Positions 36,610-50,487 of a DNA stretch of 64,000 nt are shown piece by piece. Both the position numbers and the translations under genes were made by a program. Source of the stretch: Deinococcales bacterium. Its GTDB lineage: Bacteria > Deinococcota > Deinococci > Deinococcales > JAAFIG01. The first letter of the stretch is position 1. Every line of letters starts with the position of its first letter. Below the pieces are notes generated by a model. The model was given only the letters and a program-made list of their open reading frames with translations, was not told the DNA's origin and did not search any database. The DNA lies in the NCBI GenBank assembly GCA_043778225.1, contig JAYWGM010000092.1:1-64000 (forward strand), read 5' to 3'.

Positions 36610-40079
<3,470 letters not shown>

Positions 40080-40083
<4 letters not shown>

Positions 40084-40364
40084 GTCAAATTAAATTGGAT
40101 GTCAAAGTTGTCCTAAATGATCAACATTGGGTTCAAGCTCCAAATGGCGATGTCTTGTACATGATGAATGTTAAAACGGGCAAATACTTGTACCTGAACG
40201 AAGTTGCCACTGAAATTTGGCGGCATATTAAAACCCCAATTACGGTTCAAGAAATCTGCTTAAAACTCGAGGCGGCTTTTGATGTGGATGCAGCCCAGTG
40301 CCAAAATGAAGTGATTGGTTTTTTGAATAAACTCAAGCAAGAAGGCAATCTCGAGATTTGCTAA
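40080..40364 (+). CDS. Lasso peptide RRE / PqqD-family protein (B1)
   Basis: GKYLYLNEVATEIW...TVQEIC..L...FDVD...C..EV..FL..L. Confidence 0.9.
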
Positions 40365-42287
40365 ATGAGTGGAATTTACGGGGTGGTGCGTTTTGATGGT
40401 AAACCCATTAACCAAGACTTGGCTGCCATGCAAGCGGCAATGGCGCATTGGGGAATGGACGGGCATAGACACTGGCTGGATGACTCAGTGGCATTTGGAC
40501 AGGCATTACTAAAAACCACGCCAGAAGCCAGTTTTGAACAGTTACCAAGGTTGGTCTGTGGTGGGACGGCTGTTTTAACGGCGGCGGCTCGGCTTGATAA
40601 TCGGGTTGAATTAGCCAAAGAATTGGGTTTAGACCTAAGTCAACAAGTTATTACCGCCGATGGAACTTTGGTGGCACTGTCTTTTGAAAAATGGGGTCAG
40701 GATTGCGTGCATCGGTTGCTTGGCGATTGGGCTTTTGCGGTTTGGAATAAGAATCAGCGCAGTCTTTTTTTGGCTCGAGACCATTTTGGGAACACTGGAC
40801 TGCATTTTTGTTTGTGGCAGGATGGTTTTGCTTTTTCTTCAGGCATTGAAGGGATTCTTGCACTAGAGGATGTTCAGCCAAAAATCAATCAGCCACGAAT
40901 TGTTGCGTTGCTGACTTTGGCAGTAGAAGATAGCTCGAGTACCTATTACGAAAATATTTTCCGCTTAGAAACAGCCCATAGCCTAACTTTGCAAAATCAG
41001 AAACTGCATTTTAAACGGTACTGGAAACTCGAGGAAACACCGCAACTTAAATTGGGTTCAGATGCCGAGTATGTTGAAGCATTTGTCTCCATTTACAAAA
41101 CAGCCGTCCATGACCGAATGCGCTCGAGTCGTCCAATTGCCAGTACCCTTTCGGCTGGGCTGGATTCTGGGGCGGTCACGGCATTTGCCGCCGAGTTGTT
41201 GCGTGGGCGCGGTCAAGAACTGACCGCGTTTACTTCTGTGCCAGTGTACCCAACCTTTGATTTGGTGCAACGTGGAATTGCCAATGAATGGGATTTGGCG
41301 CATCAGTCGGCACAATGGATTGGCAATGTCAAACACATGGCTTTACCTGCCGATAATTGGACACCACTGGCTGGTATTCGGCAAGCAACAAAAATTCTGC
41401 AAGAACCCGAATTTGCGACTGGCAACAGTTACTGGATTCAAGCCTTGTTATCAGAACTTCGTCAGCAAGGTTTTGGGGTTTTACTGACAGGGCAGTGCGG
41501 AAACTTAGCCGCTTCTTGGGAAGGTGGTATGTACCGTACTTGGTCGGCTTTGCGTCAAGGTCAGCTTGGGTTAGTGTTTGGGCAGTTGCGTTCTGGGGCA
41601 ATACAACGCCATTCTTGGACTCGAGCCGTGCTGGGTGAAATTGCCAAACCCGCTTTTTTATCGCTTCAAGCCCATTGGCTACAATTGACTCGAGCGCCAC
41701 AAAAACCGTATTGGACTAAACATTCGGTGATTTCACCAATTCTGGTGCATCAACTTAAACTTCTCGAGCCAAGCCAATATAAATTTAGTATTTCAGAGCA
41801 ACCTTTTTTGTATTCGGTTAAGCAGCAATTACGGCAAGTTGTTTCTATTCCGACTCGACTAGGGGCGACTTGGCACACCATGGGAGCAGGCTATGGACTC
41901 GAGGTGCGTGACCCAACGATGGACAAACGCTTACTCGAATTTTGTTTTTCAATTCCGCTAGGGCAGTTTTCTGGCGCGGGTCATGACCGTTGGCTGATGC
42001 GTCGGGCTGTGCAGGGTCTATTACCGCCAGCCGTACAATGGAACACCAAGCGTGGTCAGCAAGGAAAAGACATTGGGCAACGGCTTTTGGCTTCTCGAGA
42101 TGAGGTCGAAGAATTGCTGGAGCGTTTAAGCTCGAGTCAGAGTACAAGGTATTTGAATGTTCATAAAGTAAAAAATGCTTGGATTCGTTTGCAGCAAGAA
42201 CAAGTCAATCCCGCTCAGGAAGACGGAATTATGATTTTGGGGGCTTTGGGTTTGGGGTTGTTTTTAGAACAGGCAGAGATACGATAA
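40365..42287 (+). CDS. Lasso cyclase (asparagine synthetase-like, C)
   Basis: MSGIYG without Cys1, RLDNR, ARDHFG, LSAGLDSG, LLTGQ.G, RDPTMDKRL. Confidence 0.9.
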   Translation: MSGIYGVVRFDGKPINQDLAAMQAAMAHWGMDGHRHWLDDSVAFGQALLKTTPEASFEQLPRLVCGGTAVLTAAARLDNRVELAKELGLDLSQQVITADGTLVALSFEKWGQDCVHRLLGDWAFAVWNKNQRSLFLARDHFGNTGLHFCLWQDGFAFSSGIEGILALEDVQPKINQPRIVALLTLAVEDSSSTYYENIFRLETAHSLTLQNQKLHFKRYWKLEETPQLKLGSDAEYVEAFVSIYKTAVHDRMRSSRPIASTLSAGLDSGAVTAFAAELLRGRGQELTAFTSVPVYPTFDLVQRGIANEWDLAHQSAQWIGNVKHMALPADNWTPLAGIRQATKILQEPEFATGNSYWIQALLSELRQQGFGVLLTGQCGNLAASWEGGMYRTWSALRQGQLGLVFGQLRSGAIQRHSWTRAVLGEIAKPAFLSLQAHWLQLTRAPQKPYWTKHSVISPILVHQLKLLEPSQYKFSISEQPFLYSVKQQLRQVVSIPTRLGATWHTMGAGYGLEVRDPTMDKRLLEFCFSIPLGQFSGAGHDRWLMRRAVQGLLPPAVQWNTKRGQQGKDIGQRLLASRDEVEELLERLSSSQSTRYLNVHKVKNAWIRLQQEQVNPAQEDGIMILGALGLGLFLEQAEIR

Positions 42288-42288
42288 A

Positions 42289-42318
42289 TTGCCGTGCCAA
42301 AGGTTTTTTGTGTATAAT
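42289..42318 (+). promoter_or_regulatory. Putative internal promoter for the precursor gene
   Basis: TTGCCG-18 bp-TATAAT, then SD AAGGAG at 42329. Confidence 0.45.
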
Positions 42319-42342
42319 GAAACCTATCAAGGAGAAATAGTA

Positions 42343-42507
42343 ATGGAAAAAATTCAATCTGAGCAAGTAGAAATGCAAACAGAAGTTCTGACCCGTAAAG
42401 TGTGGGTAGCCCCGCAATTGGAAACGATTGAATTTTTAGACACAAGTCTGGCGATAAACCCCGGTGGAGTTTTTGATGCCATTTATAGTGCGAGTAGGTC
42501 ATTTTAA
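42343..42507 (+). CDS. Lasso peptide precursor (A)
   Basis: MEKIQSEQVEMQTEVLTRKVWVAPQLETIEFLDTSLAINPGGVFDAIYSASRSF; WxxPxL leader motif, Thr near the junction, Asp acceptor. Confidence 0.85.
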   Translation: MEKIQSEQVEMQTEVLTRKVWVAPQLETIEFLDTSLAINPGGVFDAIYSASRSF

Positions 42508-42565
42508 CCATATCAATTGCTCTAAAAGTAGTATTGCTTTTAACTTTGTAACACAACTCAATTAC

Positions 42566-42594
42566 GGCGGCTAAAGACCACAGTCGCTTTTTTT
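42566..42594 (+). terminator. Weak terminator after the precursor
   Basis: GCGGCT-loop-AGTCGC-TTTTTTT. Confidence 0.5.
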
Positions 42595-42615
42595 GTTGAC
42601 CTAAACTCTCGATTT

Positions 42616-43749
42616 ATGACTTACAAAATAAATTCCCACACCCAATTTTTGAGAAGCCAACAAGTTTTGATGACTCAAAACACCAATAACATTGAGCTTC
42701 GGCATACTGTTTTTCAGACTTCTTGCCACATCAACCAAGTCGGGTATTCTGTTTGGCAACTTCTCGAGCAACCCCAAACCCTCGAGATGCTTGGTTCGCA
42801 GCTTGTCCACCAATACGATGTCAGTCCAGAAATTGCCAGCCGCACCCTAGAAAATCTGCTCGATCAATTGCATGGCTTGGGCTTTATAGGTGTGCAGTAT
42901 GCAAATTTGCCCCCAGACCCAATGCGTCAACGGTATTTGGAATTACTCCAAAAAGCCTTGATGAATTTGTTGTACCCCGAACATGAATTGCGAATTCGGC
43001 ATTTGCTGATTGCCGAAAAACCAGCCAGTTCACTCGAGACAGACAGGTTTCTGCGTGATATTCGCAGCACACAACCAGAACAGTACGCCGAAGTTATGGC
43101 ATCCAAACAAGTCGGTGGGGTGCTGTACAACGAAGTCACTCGGTATTCACACACCGCCATTGGGATTCGTCGCTTAGAGAATCTGCAAGCCTGTGCCGAA
43201 GCGGTCTTTGCCGATGGTATCAAAGGCGATTTTCTCGAGGCTGGAGTCTGCCAAGGTGGAGCATCTATTTTTATGCGGGCGTTGCAAGTGGCGTATGGGC
43301 AAGCCGAACGTCTCATGTGGGTGGCGGATTCATTTGCGGGTTTACCCGTGCCAACAGCCGACTTGGATGTGCAAAGTCAACTTGATTGGTCTGAACCTCG
43401 GCAACCGTGGTTGGCAATGAGTCTCGAGACGGTACAAGAACATTTTCGACGTTACGATATGCTGAGTGGTTCGGTACATTTTTTACAAGGTTGGTTTGCC
43501 GATACACTGCCTACAGCCCCGATTCAAAAACTGGCTATTTTGCGTCTCGATGCCGATTTATACAGTTCGACCACCGATATTTTAGAAGCCTTGTATAATC
43601 GGGTCTCGGCTGGTGGTTTTATTATCGTGGATGATTACGCGGGTATTAAAGCCTGCCGAGAAGCCGTGGATAACTTTAGAACCAAAAATAGTATTCTCGA
43701 GCCAATTCGCTCTGTGGATTGGAGTTGTGTCTACTGGCGTAAAGCCTAG
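42616..43749 (+). CDS. PqqD/RRE-fused TylF/MycF/NovP-family O-methyltransferase
   Basis: N-terminal INQVGYSVWQLL..PQTL...L...YDVS; C-terminal GDFLEAGVCQGG, VADSFAG, GWFADTLP, LRLDADLY, IVDDY. Confidence 0.85.
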   Translation: MTYKINSHTQFLRSQQVLMTQNTNNIELRHTVFQTSCHINQVGYSVWQLLEQPQTLEMLGSQLVHQYDVSPEIASRTLENLLDQLHGLGFIGVQYANLPPDPMRQRYLELLQKALMNLLYPEHELRIRHLLIAEKPASSLETDRFLRDIRSTQPEQYAEVMASKQVGGVLYNEVTRYSHTAIGIRRLENLQACAEAVFADGIKGDFLEAGVCQGGASIFMRALQVAYGQAERLMWVADSFAGLPVPTADLDVQSQLDWSEPRQPWLAMSLETVQEHFRRYDMLSGSVHFLQGWFADTLPTAPIQKLAILRLDADLYSSTTDILEALYNRVSAGGFIIVDDYAGIKACREAVDNFRTKNSILEPIRSVDWSCVYWRKA

Positions 43750-43751
43750 GT

Positions 43752-45269
43752 ATGGCTCACAGCATTGTTCATCTGTACGGCACTGACCCTGAAGGCGAAA
43801 ACATTGGGCAATTCAAACACCGAGTTTTGAATCCGATAGCCTTGTTCGCCGACCACCCAGATTTTGGTGTTTTTGGACTATCTATTTTCGAGCCAGACTT
43901 TGAAGAAATTGCCCTGAATTGCGACCTTTTAATTATCCATGAACTGACTTACCCTGAACTCGAGTCACTGATTTTACTGCGTCGGTCAGGGCAAAAGCCA
44001 ACACTGTACGAAATTGCCGATGATTTTCTGGCACTGGGTTCTTGGCTACCGGCAAATCATGGTTTGTTTAGCCCTATGAACCAATCAACTCGGTTGAACT
44101 TAGCGGCTTTGGCTGATGGAATTATTTTTTCTTCGCTTGGTTTAGAACAAAAATTTGCTGATGTGAACCAAAAAAAAACAGTCTTGTCCAACTATGTTGA
44201 ACCACCGGCTAACGCTCCCAAAAAAGCCGATGGTTTTGTTTTTGGTTGGGCTGGAACAAGCACCCACAGCCAAGACTTGATGAGTGTTGCCCCAGAAATC
44301 ACGGTATTTTGCCAAACGTACCCCCATGTTAAATTTGCCGTTATGGGGCAAAGAAGTCAACTCGAGCCGATGTTTAAGGACATTCCAAAGCATCAGCTGA
44401 TTGTTCAAGATTTTGCTTCTTACAACACGTACCTTGGTTTTTTGCAAGGCTTGGATGTTGGGATTGCGCCATTATTGCCAAGCACATTTAATCAAAGCCG
44501 CACCGATGTAAAATTTGTGGAATATACTGTTTGCAACGTGGCTTGTCTTGTCTCAGCGCACAAAATCTACCAACCCCATCAAAGTTATACCAAGGTGTTT
44601 TCTAGCCCTTCGGAGTTTTTATCTTTACTCGAGCAACTGTATGCCAATCCTCAAATCCGAACCGATTTGGTGACTCGAGCCACGGCTTGGGTGGAAGTAA
44701 ATCGCAGCAAAAAAGCCATTTATGAGCAGCATCTACACTTGTACCGAAAGATGCTAGGTAAAACATTAGGCTCAAAAGTTTCTAAGCTAACCCTTCAAAC
44801 AGACCTACGGCAGCAAATGTGCATGGCATGGCAAACTCGAGCCAAAGCTGACCATCAAAAAACCTTGGAATTGACGATGAATTTATTAAGCCAATATCCG
44901 CTCTGGCATCAGGCAAGGTATTTAGCGGTTTTATCGTTACAGGCTTTGGGGCAATTTAGGGAATTGGTATTGCTGGCAGAAACACATATAGATTCAATTT
45001 ATGCAACCCTGATTGCCGAAATTGCGTATATCGCAACTGAAAAAACCCAACCCGAGCTTCAGCCCAATTTTTATGTCAGACTTTCGGAAATGGCACAATT
45101 AAGACTAAAAACACCAAGTCCACAGTCCCAATTTGAAATCATTTTACAGCACCGTCCATACGACTTTTTTGCGCTGCACGGCATGGTTCATTGGCTCGAG
45201 CCTACCGACCCACAATTGGCAATTTTGCGGCAGCGTTTAGCCTTATTAAACCCTTTAGAAAAATCATGA
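43752..45269 (+). CDS. GT-B (GT4-like) glycosyltransferase with helical C-terminus
   Basis: YEIADD, FGWAGTSTHSQDL, LDVGIAPL...FNQSRTDVKFVEY. Confidence 0.75.
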   Translation: MAHSIVHLYGTDPEGENIGQFKHRVLNPIALFADHPDFGVFGLSIFEPDFEEIALNCDLLIIHELTYPELESLILLRRSGQKPTLYEIADDFLALGSWLPANHGLFSPMNQSTRLNLAALADGIIFSSLGLEQKFADVNQKKTVLSNYVEPPANAPKKADGFVFGWAGTSTHSQDLMSVAPEITVFCQTYPHVKFAVMGQRSQLEPMFKDIPKHQLIVQDFASYNTYLGFLQGLDVGIAPLLPSTFNQSRTDVKFVEYTVCNVACLVSAHKIYQPHQSYTKVFSSPSEFLSLLEQLYANPQIRTDLVTRATAWVEVNRSKKAIYEQHLHLYRKMLGKTLGSKVSKLTLQTDLRQQMCMAWQTRAKADHQKTLELTMNLLSQYPLWHQARYLAVLSLQALGQFRELVLLAETHIDSIYATLIAEIAYIATEKTQPELQPNFYVRLSEMAQLRLKTPSPQSQFEIILQHRPYDFFALHGMVHWLEPTDPQLAILRQRLALLNPLEKS

Positions 45270-46219
45270 CAAAAGATTACTTATTATTTGGCTGGCGAGT
45301 ACGTGCCAATATCAGATTGCCTTGTTTTGAATTATTCAAGACGGGTGAACCAGACTGCTGCATCAATTTTTTACCTCCGCTCGAGTCACCTCAACTCTCC
45401 CTGCCAAATTTTGCGACCTTACTCGAAACCGATGGCGTACAGTCGGTTTGGCGGATAGACCAAGACACTTGGCGCATAGAAATGTTTAATCAAATCACCA
45501 ATCAGTGGTTACAACTCAATTTTCGTCAATCTGGCAAAAATATCGAAGTAATCTACAGCCAAAACACGATTGTCGAAAACATCCTACCAATGCTGCTCAC
45601 AAGGTTATTTACAACAATTTTATGGAATTCTGGACTCGTCTGCTTACACGGAGGTGTGGTCAATACCGAACAAGGTGGCGTTCTGCTGCTCGGGGATTCT
45701 GGCGATGGTAAATCCAGTACCTTAACCGCACTTTGGCAACAAGGTTGTACTGTGTTGAGCGATGATATTGCGGTTCTCGAGCCAAACGAACCTTGTCTGG
45801 TACATATTGGACCAAGGTATTTGCGCTTACACGACGACTCTGCCTCTGTACTGGGCATCAATCCAGAATCCCTACCAACCATATTTTTACCCGCCGAAAC
45901 GATTGGCAATAAGCGTTACATCAACCTCGAACATCAAGTGTGTCCTGTCTCGGTGGCAGTGCAACAAATTTTTATTCTTGCTGGACGAGAAAATATCGAA
46001 CAAACCAAATTGACTCGCCTTGCACCGTACATGGCTGTGGCAGAATTACTAAAATACCAATTTCGAGGTCAGCAACTCGAGCCACAAATTTACCCGCAAC
46101 TCCTAAAAGTAGCTGTTGCCTTAGCGCACCAATGCCATGTCTACTTGGTTCACACGCCAGCTAACCTTGAGAAATTACCTGAAATAGCCCAAACGATACT
46201 TGGGCAGCCACTTGTATAA
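45266..46219 (+). CDS. HPr-kinase-like lasso peptide kinase
   Basis: LHGGVV, GDSGDGKSS, VLSDD; ATGA overlap with the GT gene. Confidence 0.8.
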   Translation: MTKDYLLFGWRVRANIRLPCFELFKTGEPDCCINFLPPLESPQLSLPNFATLLETDGVQSVWRIDQDTWRIEMFNQITNQWLQLNFRQSGKNIEVIYSQNTIVENILPMLLTRLFTTILWNSGLVCLHGGVVNTEQGGVLLLGDSGDGKSSTLTALWQQGCTVLSDDIAVLEPNEPCLVHIGPRYLRLHDDSASVLGINPESLPTIFLPAETIGNKRYINLEHQVCPVSVAVQQIFILAGRENIEQTKLTRLAPYMAVAELLKYQFRGQQLEPQIYPQLLKVAVALAHQCHVYLVHTPANLEKLPEIAQTILGQPLV

Positions 46220-46226
46220 TTGATTT

Positions 46227-47372
46227 ATGACCTTAACCGAAGACCAACGAGCGATTCTCGAGACAGTGACTGATTTTTGCAAAAAAGAAATTGCACCACT
46301 TGCGGCTCAGTACGATAGAAACAGTGAATTTCCGTGGGTGCAACTAAATAAATTAGGCGAAATTGGTTTGCTTGGTGCAACTGTGCCAGAAGCCTACGGT
46401 GGCTCTGGTTTGGATGCCGTGACTTACGCACTTTGTCTCGAGCAAATTTGTAAAGCCGATGCTAGTGTGGGCGTGATTGTCAGTGTCACCAACGGGCTAC
46501 CGCAGCAAATGCTTTTGAATCATGGTACTGAAGCCCAAAAACAGCGTTGGCTCGTGCCATTGGCTCGAGGGCAAAAAATTGGCGCGTTTTGTCTGACCGA
46601 AGCCAATAGCGGCTCGGATGCTGCCAGCTTACGAAGTCGTGCCACCCAAGAAGGTAACGACTGGATTCTCGAGGGGCAAAAGGTTTGGATTACCTCTGGC
46701 GGACAAGCCCAGACCTATTTGGTTATGGTGCGAACCAACGATGAACGCGGCTCGAGAGGGATTAGCTGCTTTGTTCTCGAAAAAGGTATGGCGGGTTTAT
46801 CTTTTGGTAAACCCGAAGAGAAAATGGGGCTTCATGCAGCCCATACCACCACGGTCAATATGGATGCGGTAAGAGTCTCGAGCGACCACATGATTGGTAC
46901 TGAAGGACAAGGGCTGATTATTGCTTTATCCAGCCTTGACGGCGGAAGAATTGGTATTGCGATGCAAGCCATTGGCATTGCCCAAGCGGCTTTTGAAGCT
47001 GCCAGAGATTACGCTTTTGCCCGTGAGCAATTTGGCTCGAGACTGTCCGAGTTTGAAGGGATTAGTTTCAAGATTGCGGACATGGCGACCCGAATTCACG
47101 CCTCGAGACTGCTGGCTTTGGATGCCGCCAGTCTAAAAGAAGCTGGTAAACCCTACAGCAAAGAAGCCAGCATGGCAAAATTATTTGCCTCAGAAACCGC
47201 CAATTTTGTAGCCAAAGAAGCGATTCAGATTTTTGGTGGCAACGGCTACAGCCGAGAATACCCAGTCGAGCGCCATTACCGCGATGCAAAAATCACCGAG
47301 ATTTACGAAGGCACATCTGAAATTCAGCGCCTTGTTATCTCGAGACAAGTGTTTAAGGACTCGAGACAATAA
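46227..47372 (+). CDS. Acyl-CoA dehydrogenase
   Basis: FCLTEANSGSD, REQFG, IFGGNGY, IYEGTSEIQR. Confidence 0.95.
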   Translation: MTLTEDQRAILETVTDFCKKEIAPLAAQYDRNSEFPWVQLNKLGEIGLLGATVPEAYGGSGLDAVTYALCLEQICKADASVGVIVSVTNGLPQQMLLNHGTEAQKQRWLVPLARGQKIGAFCLTEANSGSDAASLRSRATQEGNDWILEGQKVWITSGGQAQTYLVMVRTNDERGSRGISCFVLEKGMAGLSFGKPEEKMGLHAAHTTTVNMDAVRVSSDHMIGTEGQGLIIALSSLDGGRIGIAMQAIGIAQAAFEAARDYAFAREQFGSRLSEFEGISFKIADMATRIHASRLLALDAASLKEAGKPYSKEASMAKLFASETANFVAKEAIQIFGGNGYSREYPVERHYRDAKITEIYEGTSEIQRLVISRQVFKDSRQ

Positions 47373-48749
47373 TTAGCGGTAATAATTTTTTAACATCTCT
47401 TGGTACTCTGGCGGCAAACGCGGGTCAAGCACCGCCGATTCAGCCGCACGGCGGTACGAGGCGCTGCCAGTCGGGCTGGTAAAGCCATTTGTCGGGTCGC
47501 CGGGCAGTTGTAATGCGCCACTGCGAACATTATTGCCTTTGGCTGTGCCTTGAAGGTATTCGAGCTTGCCTTTGCCACTCTGGCGGTTGGCAGCCACAGG
47601 ATTCCCATTGGCATCCTTTGCGCCATTTCCGGGGCTGGTGCTGCGATTGCCTTGGCTGTTGGGGTTTTGTGGGTCAAAACCTTGGGTATCTTCGCCACGG
47701 TCGAGGTTGTTGCCTCGAGGGTCGCGTTTTGGTTGATTGCCCTGTGTGCCATTGCCAGCTTGATTTGCGCCAGATTGCCCGTTTTGTCCATTTTGATCGC
47801 CCTGAGCGCCAGACTGCCCGTTTTGGTTATTGGGCTGCCCATTTTGCCCATTTTGATTGTTGGGCTGTCCATTTTGTCCGTTTTGGTTTGCACTTTGCTG
47901 CCCATTTTGATCGTTTTGGTTGTTGCCACTGCCATTCTGACCATCGCTCTTGCCGTCTTCTGAGCCAGACTGACCGGCGGTCGGTGGGTTGGCATCTTCG
48001 ACTTGACCATCGGGGCTGCCCTCTTTATTGGGGTCGCGGTCACGGACTGCACCGCGCTCGAGGGCTTCGAGAAATTCTTTAGAAATGGCTTCTGGACTTT
48101 CGGTGGCACTGCCACCACCGGGTTTTAATTCCCCCAGATTCTGCTCTGAAGCACTGCCCCCCGAGGCTGCTTGTCCGGGTTTGGCATCTGCGCCAGCCGG
48201 CGGTGCATCGCGGCTTGGCGCATCAAGGATTGGTTCGGCAGAACTAGAACTCGAGCCATTGGGTGTATTTGGATTCTCGAGTGATTCGCGGCTGATGGTA
48301 CGGTCTTCGGCACTGATTTGGCTACCCAGTCCTCGAGTCGGCAAAACCAAAAGTAAACTCAGCAGTACCGCCATACCAAGCGTCTCGAGCCAAGGCAGTG
48401 GCGGCAACTCGGTGTTTTTTTGCACCGTCAGTGCCATGTTGTCCAACCGATTTTTGAAGCCGTGCATATCGGTTTGGGCGGTTAGGGCGGTGGTGTAAGC
48501 TGCGCCTGTTGTTTTTTCGATTTCTTGCAGCGTACTTTGGTAGCTCGAGCTTGGCATCAAAAGACCCAACAGCGCCAACAGCAACCAAAATGGCGAAGCC
48601 CCCAATATCCAAATTGCCAAGAGTAACCCAGCCACAGCAATCAGCACGGCTCGAGCTTTGATTTGAAAAGCCCGTCTCGAGAACCACTGGCGATGCAGCT
48701 TGAGGTTTGGATGTTGCCACCAAGTTGGTAGGGAAGGGGTACGAATCAT
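47373..48749 (-). CDS. Membrane protein with Gln/Asn/Gly-rich low-complexity tail
   Basis: TM segments; NQNGQNGQPN repeats; terminal LPPEYQEMLKNYY. Confidence 0.7.
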   Translation of the reverse strand: MIRTPSLPTWWQHPNLKLHRQWFSRRAFQIKARAVLIAVAGLLLAIWILGASPFWLLLALLGLLMPSSSYQSTLQEIEKTTGAAYTTALTAQTDMHGFKNRLDNMALTVQKNTELPPLPWLETLGMAVLLSLLLVLPTRGLGSQISAEDRTISRESLENPNTPNGSSSSSAEPILDAPSRDAPPAGADAKPGQAASGGSASEQNLGELKPGGGSATESPEAISKEFLEALERGAVRDRDPNKEGSPDGQVEDANPPTAGQSGSEDGKSDGQNGSGNNQNDQNGQQSANQNGQNGQPNNQNGQNGQPNNQNGQSGAQGDQNGQNGQSGANQAGNGTQGNQPKRDPRGNNLDRGEDTQGFDPQNPNSQGNRSTSPGNGAKDANGNPVAANRQSGKGKLEYLQGTAKGNNVRSGALQLPGDPTNGFTSPTGSASYRRAAESAVLDPRLPPEYQEMLKNYYR

Positions 48750-49246
48750 GAGCGAACTCCTTGTGGCTGAAATAATACCAGCAGTAAACCCAGCATACTT
48801 GAGCCGAGCAAAAGCAGCAAAGGCAAAGAATAGACACTGGGCTGAAAACCATTAAAAAAAAGCGCTGTTACGCCCAAGACAGGGAAAATCTGTGAAGCAC
48901 TGGGGAAGATTCTGGCAAAAGTATATGAACCACAACCAGCTACAAAACTTGAAATTAAACTTGGCGGAAATCCTTCTCGAGCCTCCAAAGAAAATGCCCA
49001 AAGCTCGGGCGGAGACAGAATAACCGCCCATAAAAAGAGCGTACTCAATCCCAAGCGTGGTGCAGCCTCGTATAAAAACGCGCCCAGCAGCAGCAAACCA
49101 ATCAGGCGCAGGCTGCCAATCGCATGAAAGCCCAAAGGCTCGAGTCCAGAGGTACGTGGGCTGAGGGCAGCCAAGGTTAGTAACTCGAGCGCCAGCACAA
49201 CGCTCAAAATCTGATACAGAATTTCTTTCTCGAGTATCTCTTTCAT
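48746..49246 (-). CDS. Hypothetical membrane protein
   Basis: Hydrophobic; ATGA-coupled operon. Confidence 0.6.
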   Translation of the reverse strand: MKEILEKEILYQILSVVLALELLTLAALSPRTSGLEPLGFHAIGSLRLIGLLLLGAFLYEAAPRLGLSTLFLWAVILSPPELWAFSLEAREGFPPSLISSFVAGCGSYTFARIFPSASQIFPVLGVTALFFNGFQPSVYSLPLLLLLGSSMLGLLLVLFQPQGVRS

Positions 49247-50487
49247 GGTGTACCCGCTAAAGCAATCAACAGTGTGCCATTGGGTTGCTGTGCCATGACC
49301 GCGTTTTCTGGCAGCAGTTTCATCAGTTCGGTATATTCATCCCACGGCAGGGTTTCGTAAATCTGGGCAGTTATCGTGCGGCTCGCACCAACTGCCAGTG
49401 GTTCTTGTCTTCCCATACCACGAATAAAAATTTTCTCGAGGCTTGTCTGGCTCTCGTTGATTAGTTTGCCATTTTCAATTCGCATCGGAACGCGGCTGGC
49501 GGTGGGCGGTATGAGATAGCGAATTTCTCGCCAACCGCTTGCCACAAAAATCGTCTCGGTTTGGCGGTGCTGGCGCTCGAAGCGCTCGAGCGGTAACGCA
49601 CCTGCCGGAAGTTTCCAATCTGGACGCAAGGCATAGCGAGCATGGATTGTCCAGCGTATCCCCCAGCCATTTGCACCAATCAGAACTTGGCGTTGTGCCT
49701 CGAGAAATGGCGCTTTGGGTTGACTTGCCCACCAGCCTAAGCCAGCTAAAAAAGTGCTGCACATTGCCAAGCCAATGGTGTAACGTGGCTCGGTTCGTTT
49801 GAGGCTGTACAAGCCAAGCAGCACAATAAAAACACCGACCGACCAAAAACCAAGTAAAGTATGGCGACGTTCTGGCGGGCGGACAGTCGGTGCAAATTCT
49901 TTGAGCATCTCCAAAAACTTTAAGGGTAAAATACTGCCTTGAACGCTGCCAAGCCCTAAGCTGCCGCGTGGTAAACCAATTGGTGTTTGGCTCAGGTTTG
50001 CCCCACCAGCCACGACTGCCAAAGCCAGACTTGGCTCGAGCCGCCCAAGAATGGTGTGACCTGCCAAGTACAGACTTGGGTCTGGCGGTAAACGGCTGCC
50101 GTCTAATTCGAGCCGTCCAGCACTTGGCTCAAAGCGTTTTGTGACTGTGCCAGTTGCGCCGCTTAGTGTTACCCGAACAAGGCGGGTGCTGACAATGGGG
50201 ATTAGAAGCCGTGCTTCACGAATCCCAGCCCCTTCAGGTAACTCGAGTAAAGCCGAGACGGGTGTTAAGCCTTCCAACACTTTTCCTTCGGAAGTCTCGA
50301 GCTTGGCGCTAAATGCTCCGCCACTGGTTGCCACCAAGCGAAATTCGACCCAGCCGCCACTCGAGAAACGCCCATTCCAGCCAACTTCGGCAAACGCGCC
50401 GGGGATGTGTACTTGACCTTCTTCTTCGGCTCGAGCCACAGCCAAAAGCAGCCAGAAAGCCGCCACCAAAAACCATGCTCGAGACAT
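49243..50487 (-). CDS. Hypothetical exported/membrane protein
   Basis: Signal peptide, two TM segments. Confidence 0.65.
   Translation of the reverse strand: MSRAWFLVAAFWLLLAVARAEEEGQVHIPGAFAEVGWNGRFSSGGWVEFRLVATSGGAFSAKLETSEGKVLEGLTPVSALLELPEGAGIREARLLIPIVSTRLVRVTLSGATGTVTKRFEPSAGRLELDGSRLPPDPSLYLAGHTILGRLEPSLALAVVAGGANLSQTPIGLPRGSLGLGSVQGSILPLKFLEMLKEFAPTVRPPERRHTLLGFWSVGVFIVLLGLYSLKRTEPRYTIGLAMCSTFLAGLGWWASQPKAPFLEAQRQVLIGANGWGIRWTIHARYALRPDWKLPAGALPLERFERQHRQTETIFVASGWREIRYLIPPTASRVPMRIENGKLINESQTSLEKIFIRGMGRQEPLAVGASRTITAQIYETLPWDEYTELMKLLPENAVMAQQPNGTLLIALAGTP

Follow-up and report, generated by a model that had tools for sequence, protein, structure and literature searches.

An RRE-TylF methyltransferase fusion in lasso-peptide gene clusters: a widespread, uncharacterised family that may methylate a sugar on the precursor tail

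What is the substrate of an enzyme whose catalytic half belongs to a family of sugar methyltransferases, while its other half is of the kind that holds the leader of a ribosomal peptide? The question is raised by a gene at 42616..43749 (forward strand) of a 64,000-nucleotide stretch from a Deinococcales bacterium (contig JAYWGM010000092.1, positions 1 to 64,000, assembly GCA_043778225.1), which we call the window. The gene lies among the genes for a lasso peptide, one of the peptides that ribosomes make and that are modified after translation (RiPPs). We find that it encodes a two-domain protein, probably a tailoring enzyme of the lasso-peptide pathway, in which a PqqD-type RiPP recognition element (RRE, residues ~8-95) is joined to a complete TylF-family O-methyltransferase; we refer to the protein as RRE-MT. 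The reading that we prefer, with a probability of roughly 60%, is that RRE-MT docks on the precursor leader and methylates a sugar placed on the precursor tail rather than the peptide itself.

The reading frame runs uninterrupted from the ATG at 42616 to the stop at 43749 and encodes 377 residues. The window's own database entry (P0002, 359 aa) starts at the internal Met19; we prefer the longer start at 42616 because relatives align across residues 8-18 and because both structure models place a beta-strand at residues 9-13. Residues 1-100 (42616..42915, forward strand) form the RRE, which is recognised by Pfam PqqD, a domain model, Foldseek and a profile search alike. The PqqD match itself (PF05402) covers residues 38-91 at E 2e-10 and 41.3 bits against a curated cut-off of 23.4. 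Residues 105-376, which together with the stop codon occupy 42928..43749 on the same strand, form a metal-dependent class I O-methyltransferase domain of the TylF family that uses S-adenosylmethionine (SAM); here the Pfam profile PF05711 is matched over positions 2-264 of 264 (E 1.2e-82, 277.6 bits). Both matches exceed their curated cut-offs and lie far beyond chance, and the model of the full-length protein is predicted with a pLDDT of 87.9 and a pTM of 0.87. Mean column identity in the family alignment is 61% over the full length, and this conservation rules out a chance reading frame or an artefact of gene calling. The gene is present in a single copy, with no second one in its own genome, and a search of NCBIfam returned no family-level match for the fusion.

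By sequence and by fold, the closest solved relatives of the methyltransferase domain are SpnH, NovP, MycF and CalS11, all of them sugar O-methyltransferases. SpnH, the spinosyn rhamnosyl 4'-O-methyltransferase, is 48-49% identical over ~200 residues (E 8e-63) and is matched by Foldseek at E 6e-23 with TMt up to 0.91; the range for the family is 0.84-0.91, which places the domain in the same fold. The MycF structures matched are complexes with Mg, S-adenosylhomocysteine and mycinamicins, and CalS11, the TDP-rhamnose 3'-O-methyltransferase, is a more distant structural match. The likeness extends to individual residues: D312, D314, D339 and D340 align with D209, D211, D236 and D237 of MycF (the D-x-D and D-D pairs) and are invariant in all 20 aligned family members, as is the SAM loop E208-A-G-x-C-x-G-G. 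In MycF these acidic residues serve in metal binding and as the base, and the metal site of the TylF family binds two neighbouring oxygens, such as sugars offer. Judged by these aligned residues, the TylF-type domain would transfer the methyl group of SAM to a hydroxyl. RRE-MT thus has in common with the TylF/MycF/NovP/SpnH sugar O-methyltransferases (PF05711) a fold, a full-length profile match and the aligned D-x-D and D-D. It differs from them in its architecture and its setting: the known members are single-domain proteins that methylate deoxysugars on macrolides, aminocoumarins and spinosyns, or TDP-rhamnose, and are not tied to a ribosomal peptide, whereas RRE-MT has an RRE at its N-terminus and is encoded within a lasso cluster. 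In Pfam the protein matches only TylF, PqqD and Methyltransf_24 at E 0.01 or better. The methyltransferase families already characterised in lasso pathways (the Methyltransf_2-type StspM/LasF and the PIMT type) are ruled out for RRE-MT, as neither gives a Pfam match at that threshold.

The N-terminal part points to a lasso pathway. A model of residues 1-100, built on 33 homologous domains (pLDDT 91.2), shows strands (17-21, 26-30, 35-39) followed by three helices (41-49, 56-67, 71-87), which is the winged-helix fold of an RRE, with extra strands at 9-13 and 91-95. Foldseek against the PDB returns as its best match TbiB1 in complex with a leader (TMq 0.74, TMt 0.84), then TfuB1 with its leader (TMt 0.81) and PqqD (0.73), and after these the RREs embedded in other RiPP enzymes. 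A profile of the 33 fused RREs gives the same order of kinship, with TbiB1 first (E 2.2e-14), followed by the lasso peptide biosynthesis PqqD family chaperone (6.7e-12), TfuB1 (3.9e-11) and PqqD (3g2b, 3e-6). The cluster also encodes a stand-alone RRE protein of its own, B1 (40080-40364), and in a single BLASTP comparison the two share 21% identity over 52 residues at E 1e-4, with a common pattern of roughly N..x..(V/I)W..(L/I)..P.T...(L/I)......(Y/F)DV. The first-pass annotation had claimed that the first ~95 residues parallel B1 and are followed by a full set of TylF motifs, on a PqqD-fold N-terminus. The TylF motifs and the PqqD fold are borne out by the profile and structure matches above. 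The parallel with B1 is real but weak, and one letter of the motif string that was proposed, a glycine (G43), is an alanine in B1.

We next ask how the fused domains relate to the free ones. When the 33 fused RREs are placed in one tree with 27 stand-alone B1 proteins of the same loci, a single branch separates the fused from the free domains (SH-aLRT 97) and lineages group similarly on both sides, although many forks stay unresolved because the domain is short. This topology agrees with a single old fusion that was afterwards inherited together with the cluster. From the fold, the profile and the complex model described below, we infer that the N-terminal RRE descends from leader binders of the lasso B1 type.

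Does the fused domain still bind a leader? We predicted the complex of full-length RRE-MT with the precursor of the same cluster and obtained a score of 0.71 (runs at 0.74, 0.54 and 0.71), while the best of 3 controls reached 0.34; of 157 solved complexes 116 reach the mark that the prediction passes, as do 2 of 215 mismatched pairs, a rough guide only, since our own alignments were used. Across the runs contact agreement is at least 51% and the pLDDT of the partner at least 52. The predicted interface joins precursor residues 18-35 (RKVWVAPQLETIEFLDTS) to residues 33-46 and 63-88 of RRE-MT, that is, to the last beta-strand and third helix that make up the canonical RRE groove, and a few further precursor contacts are predicted on the methyltransferase domain (162-170, 366-369). 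RRE-leader complexes have already been solved, so that the passing score may reflect likeness to them. With that caveat, the model supports binding of the conserved leader motif, K-x-W-x-x-P-x-L-E in the window precursor, by the RRE of the fusion in the usual groove. The fused domain would thus resemble TbiB1, TfuB1 and PqqD both in fold and in the predicted position of the leader along the last strand and third helix. The difference lies in how the domain is deployed: B1 is a free protein of ~90 residues that hands the leader to the peptidase B2, whereas the window has, in addition to a normal B1, a second RRE fused in cis to a catalytic domain. In the bsf system a free B1 also accelerates the kinase, according to the portion of that report available to us (PMC10368454).

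These results bear on a reading in which one half of the protein is vestigial, either because the RRE is a structural appendage or because the methyltransferase is inactive and the protein's role is that of a further chaperone or a scaffold. The available text of the RRE-Finder preprint discusses vestigial RREs in LanB-like and dehydrogenase fusions, and NCBI names some members of the present family just 'PqqD family peptide modification chaperone'. But both domains are conserved over about eight phyla at the column identity given above, the catalytic acidic residues do not vary, nor does the glycine-rich SAM loop, and W21 and P24 of the precursor, which are modelled in the groove, are invariant in 28 of 28 precursors. 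We consider a vestigial domain the least likely of the readings treated here.

The fusion is a widespread and uncharacterised family that combines two known principles, RRE-guided tailoring and TylF-type sugar methylation. Among the 120 best matches in 5.8 billion clustered proteins, the window entry included, 117 carry both PF05402 and PF05711, and the names they bear at source are 'O-methyltransferase', 'Macrocin O-methyltransferase' and 'PqqD family peptide modification chaperone'. A scan of genomes, one per species, yields 44 loci from about eight phyla (neighbour counts below use the window proteins as queries). The taxa include Deinococcales, Thermoanaerobaculia and other Acidobacteriota, Gemmatimonadota, Thermoleophilia, sphingomonads, Bradyrhizobium, Undibacterium, Pigmentiphaga, Geobacter, Smithellaceae, Elusimicrobia and one spirochaete, and fusion-bearing clusters are found in Deinococcota, Acidobacteriota, Gemmatimonadota, Actinomycetota, Pseudomonadota, Thermodesulfobacteriota and Elusimicrobiota. 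In the order to which the window belongs, the gene occurs in 4 of the 151 genomes searched, its own genome included, a patchy distribution that would be expected of an accessory cluster.

We now turn to the precursors found beside the enzyme. A motif scan finds a precursor-like reading frame that ends within 700 nt upstream of the methyltransferase gene at 39 of the 45 places considered, which are the window and the 44 loci. Their leaders share the motif K/R-x-x-W-x-x-P-x-h-E, to which W21 and P24 belong (the window precursor and 27 others aligned). The acidic residue that would close the ring (D45) and Y48, a tyrosine 3-4 residues later, are each present in at least 90% of the 28 aligned precursors. 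In all 40 precursors that could be compared the tail holds a tyrosine, and 38 of them have a serine or threonine within 2 residues after the last tyrosine; of the two exceptions one is an artefact of this rule (L004, with Y-T-Y-T-Y) and one, the second copy in L001, is genuine. The tail is short, with only 4 to 9 residues beyond the ring aspartate in many family members, and it ends in serine in 21 of the 40. The closest relative of the window (L001, methyltransferase 83% identical) has two tandem precursor genes with differing cores at 2306-2674, where the window has one. Where exactly the core begins depends on how a conserved threonine, 13 residues after the invariant tryptophan, is placed. 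If it stands at -2, the rings would have 9-10 members. The YxxPxL leader motif is reported to span -17 to -12 in the accessible part of PMC10368454; if that -17 spacing is applied, the rings would have 7-8 members, the threonine would stand at -4 and the first core residue would vary (I, F, Y, G, A).

The company that the methyltransferase keeps also points to a sugar as the probable acceptor. A glycosyltransferase adjoins it in 42 of the 44 loci, and the two loci without one (L006 and L026) have 0 and 145 bp of contig left after the methyltransferase gene. In 25 loci this neighbour is a homolog of the window's GT-B type enzyme, and the other 17 carry a GT2 (PF00535), unrelated to it, immediately downstream of the methyltransferase. 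That two unrelated families occupy one place, in what amounts to a non-homologous replacement, argues that it is the pairing of sugar transfer with methylation that is kept. The same pairing recurs among close TylF relatives that lack the RRE: they are found fused to glycosyltransferases of the GT2, WbsX and GT41 types (P0158, P0157 and P0163), and at L041 one of them adjoins a GT1+TPR homolog of the window glycosyltransferase outside any lasso context. Sulfur chemistry turns up beside the module as well, with a sulfotransferase (PF00685) or adjoining sulfate-activation genes (PAPS reductase-like, APS kinase-GTPase) at L017:15483-16721, L028:4481-5401 and L012:4264-7115, which hints at sulfated variants of the same peptide family.

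The precursors and neighbours can also be read in another way, namely that the leader guides direct methylation of the peptide, at a tail Tyr, Ser or Thr hydroxyl, at the C-terminal carboxylate or at a phosphate added by the kinase, with the glycosyltransferase working independently. Suitable hydroxyls are at hand, given the tail tyrosine in 40 of 40 precursors and the nearby Ser/Thr in 38. Lasso peptides with C-terminal methyl esters are on record in the available parts of the literature (lassomycin, StspM). Furthermore, a metagenomic representative of 711 residues (P0124) is a PqqD-TylF-HprK triple fusion, in which one RRE serves two catalytic domains, and this ties the methyltransferase to the kinase at least as tightly as to the glycosyltransferase. 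Against direct peptide methylation stand the close solved relatives, every one of which methylates a sugar hydroxyl, the fusions of related TylF domains to glycosyltransferases and the metal site that accommodates two neighbouring oxygens as in a sugar. The neighbour counts weigh the same way: a glycosyltransferase of one or the other family accompanies the methyltransferase in 42 of 42 loci where this can be judged, while a kinase within 6 kb accompanies it in just 31 of 44. We therefore regard methylation of the peptide itself as unlikely but by no means negligible, and methylation of a tail sugar as the better account.

We now turn to the rest of the cluster in the window, which is encoded entirely on the forward strand. 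It starts without a gap after a housekeeping gene, as the stop of an IMP dehydrogenase gene overlaps the start of B2; that gene (36938-39628, forward strand, 896 aa) contains an intein, with Hint and LAGLIDADG-like segments, within its catalytic domain. The leader peptidase B2 (39625..40083, 152 aa) matches Transglut_core3 in Pfam at 1.3e-19 and lasso_biosyn_B2 in NCBIfam at 85.2 bits against a cut-off of 33. The stand-alone RRE B1 (40080..40364, 94 aa) matches PqqD at 1.6e-18 in Pfam and lasso_PqqD_Bac at 63 bits, below the cut-off of 80. The cyclase C (40365..42287, 640 aa) has Asn_synthase and GATase_7 domains in Pfam and matches lass_lactam_cya at 1.3e-119 and 400.7 bits, where the cut-off is 525. 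The precursor A (42343..42507, 54 aa, MEKIQSEQVEMQTEVLTRKVWVAPQLETIEFLDTSLAINPGGVFDAIYSASRSF) is a reading frame preceded by an aaggaga ribosome site, which we aligned with 27 other precursors. With B2, B1, an Asn-synthase-like cyclase and a precursor that carries W-x-x-P-x-L-E and D45, the set is that of a lasso cluster. Just upstream of the precursor gene lies a promoter-like TTGCCG-18 nt-TATAAT (42289..42318), the best consensus match in 39000-47500 with 10 of 12 positions. The region holds 6 promoter-like sites, fewer than the shuffle mean of 11.3, so the site is a lead only. Between the precursor and RRE-MT genes a 7-bp hairpin with a U-run (42566..42594), detected by RNA folding, may be a leaky terminator; its energy resembles that of shuffled sequences (z -0.49), and it is absent from the sites listed by the consensus scan. 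A promoter before and a leaky terminator after the precursor gene would give more precursor transcript than enzyme transcript, a layout whose two elements are each no better than chance.

Downstream of RRE-MT follow the two partners on which the proposed pathway depends. The GT-B type glycosyltransferase (43752..45269, 505 aa) is matched by Glyco_trans_1_2 at 5.7e-4, below the Pfam cut-off, and its ten best Atlas clusters are GT1/GT4 families, mostly with TPR (features 0.98-0.93, structure TM 0.86-0.59). The HprK-like peptide kinase (45266..46219, 317 aa from the ATG at 45266) is matched by Hpr_kinase_C at 1.3e-5 and by HprK_rel_A at 4.7e-8, both below cut-off. The mechanical reading frame of the kinase begins at a TTG at 45191, and the start is probably the ATG at 45266, which overlaps the glycosyltransferase stop as ATGA; the kinase ortholog in L001 has the length of this 317-aa reading. 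In the Pfam scan neither the glycosyltransferase nor the kinase has an RRE of its own. Directly after the kinase, both here and in L001, comes an acyl-CoA dehydrogenase gene (46227-47372, forward strand), which probably lies outside the cluster, its homolog being distant or absent in other loci. Three consecutive reading frames on the minus strand at 47373-50487 (458, 166 and 414 aa) have no Pfam or NCBIfam match at E 0.01 or better.

The relationship between such a module and the lasso genes need not be one of common purpose. HprK-like kinase, RRE and NTP-transferase modules that often lie beside lasso clusters and make a different peptide were reported in 2026, and linear polyphosphorylated peptide clusters of Bacillota are described as co-localising with lasso clusters (PMC13381572, in the part available). 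By analogy RRE-MT, glycosyltransferase and kinase could be a portable tailoring module from a distinct ribosomal peptide pathway, not of the lasso kind, that happens to lie next to the lasso genes. No cyclase was found in 6 of the 44 loci. In one of these, from Pigmentiphaga humi (L009:9565-14087), a stand-alone PqqD protein, an RRE-MT, a GT-B type glycosyltransferase and an HprK-like kinase lie together, in a 21-kb locus where the window queries detected neither a cyclase nor B2 nor a W-x-x-P precursor; the locus may hold the tailoring module in a lasso-free form. What makes a separate pathway very unlikely is the cyclase in 38 of 44 loci and the precursor directly upstream of the methyltransferase in 39 of 45 places. 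In the window itself the lone precursor stands between C and the methyltransferase, with a leader motif of the lasso type and an acidic residue at ring-forming distance, the Pfam scan shows no second leader peptidase in the cluster, and the fused RRE is nearest to lasso B1 proteins. The window proteins do not score as members of the HPr-rel-A system in NCBIfam (TIGR04352/TIGR04353), where the fused RRE reaches 19.1 bits with PqqD_rel_X (cut-off 35) and the kinase 32.5 bits with HprK_rel_A (cut-off 200).

Taken in order, the steps of sugar methylation on a lasso precursor would be as follows. The RRE would dock on the K/R-x-x-W-x-x-P-x-h-E segment of the leader, and the adjacent glycosyltransferase would attach a sugar to the short C-terminal tail of the core, close to its invariant Tyr-Ser/Thr. 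A hydroxyl of that tail sugar would then be the methyl acceptor. Going by the lasso kinases already described, the tail is probably also phosphorylated, by the HprK-like kinase. An enzyme that needs the leader would act before B1 and B2 cut it off and C closes the ring, so it is on the linear precursor that the decorations would be installed.

Several observations weigh against this account. Homology and neighbourhood make a sugar the most likely acceptor, and the peptide or a phosphate could take the methyl group instead. The complex model leaves the core unplaced and is silent on which residue reaches the active site, and the boundary between leader and core is itself ambiguous around the conserved threonine. 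The glycosyltransferase of the window falls under its Pfam cut-off, and its activity, its donor and its acceptor residue are all putative; the cyclase, too, scores below its NCBIfam cut-off. The kinase was not found with the window query in 13 of the 44 loci. The residue phosphorylated by known lasso kinases is a C-terminal Ser or Ser3, according to the accessible parts of the literature (PMC10368454 among the sources), while the window precursor ends in Phe (...IYSASRSF) and only 21 of 40 precursors end in Ser. Finally, in a FastTree analysis of 145 methyltransferase cores the RRE-bearing sequences cluster but form no single clean clade, with 5 label changes and with fragments among the neighbours, so that this tree neither establishes nor rules out one origin for the fusion inside the TylF family.

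Comparison with known systems helps to place the enzyme. The StspM/LasF and PIMT-type (LihM) methyltransferases carry out SAM-dependent tailoring of lasso peptides as RRE-MT would, and they belong to other methyltransferase families. In the sections available, StspM is described as acting on the linear precursor and is modelled on the mitomycin 7-O-methyltransferase, while LihM, a PIMT homolog that leads to an aspartimide, requires the threaded lasso and not the leader. No RRE fusion is reported for either type in the available portions of the reviews, whereas RRE-MT carries one. The paeninodin, pseudomycoidin and BsfA systems have in common with the window an HprK-like kinase and a sugar-adding enzyme. 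In the accounts of them that could be consulted it is the tail that is decorated, and the kinase works on the linear precursor. The differences are that their sugar-adding enzyme is a nucleotidyltransferase, where the window has a GT-B enzyme and other loci a GT2, and that no methyltransferase is described, in the same accounts, for phosphorylated or phosphoglycosylated lasso clusters. The C-terminal Ser of those systems is shared by about half of the present precursors (21/40) and is missing from the window's own. Another precedent in design is given by the RRE-glycosyltransferase and RRE-carbamoyltransferase fusions of the RRE-Finder 2025 update, in the part available, which follow the same principle: fusion to an RRE implies leader-dependent tailoring.

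How new is the combination? The decorations listed in the available parts of reviews are C-terminal methyl esters (StspM/LasF), aspartimide via PIMT homologs, phosphorylation, phosphoglycosylation by a nucleotidyltransferase, Ser glycosylation of the mature lasso and several others, with no mention there of a TylF-type or RRE-fused methyltransferase. Neither the RRE-Finder preprint nor the 2025 update mentions an RRE-TylF fusion in the text that is accessible, and the 2020 preprint reports, in that text, that 1,050 methyltransferases from the exploratory mode were set aside as presumed false positives. A targeted full-text search for lasso or PqqD together with TylF or macrocin enzymes returned no paper; subscription journals are largely uncovered by it, and an earlier mention in a cluster figure is possible. 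The first-pass annotation had stated that the characterised lasso methyltransferases are C-terminal carboxyl or PIMT types and not TylF, and the available review text agrees, as does the lack of a Pfam match to those families. Its proposal of a new leader-dependent class of RiPP methyltransferase is supported with two changes. The enzyme is of TylF type with the leader motif modelled in the RRE groove; the class proves to be a widespread family, and a sugar is a likelier acceptor than the peptide. It had further taken the RRE as the best evidence that the downstream genes act on the peptide. We agree that they probably do, and find stronger grounds for it than the RRE alone in conserved synteny, in the two glycosyltransferase families and in the triple fusion.

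A more ambitious picture can be drawn from the same parts. Because the glycosyltransferase and the kinase lack RREs of their own, RRE-MT may also act, speculatively, as a docking hub for both. In its fullest form, which we hold only tentatively and think rather less probable than not, RRE-MT is the leader-docking hub of a module of kinase, glycosyltransferase and sugar O-methyltransferase. That module would build an O-methylated, possibly phosphate-linked glycan on a very short lasso tail, where the glycan together with the invariant Tyr would plug the threading; it would also be transferable to peptides of non-lasso type, a possibility suggested by the cyclase-free Pigmentiphaga locus.

Lasso peptides attract interest as drug scaffolds, and only a few decorations of them are known. 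The RRE-MT family predicts a new one, a methylated sugar on the tail that is made with the leader still attached. For genome mining based on RREs, such a family would correct the habit of dropping methyltransferase matches as false positives. If the prediction is true, the fusion would be a ready-made part for the combinatorial engineering of RiPPs, and it would represent a natural case in which a sugar-tailoring enzyme has been redirected to a ribosomal peptide through fusion to a leader-binding domain.

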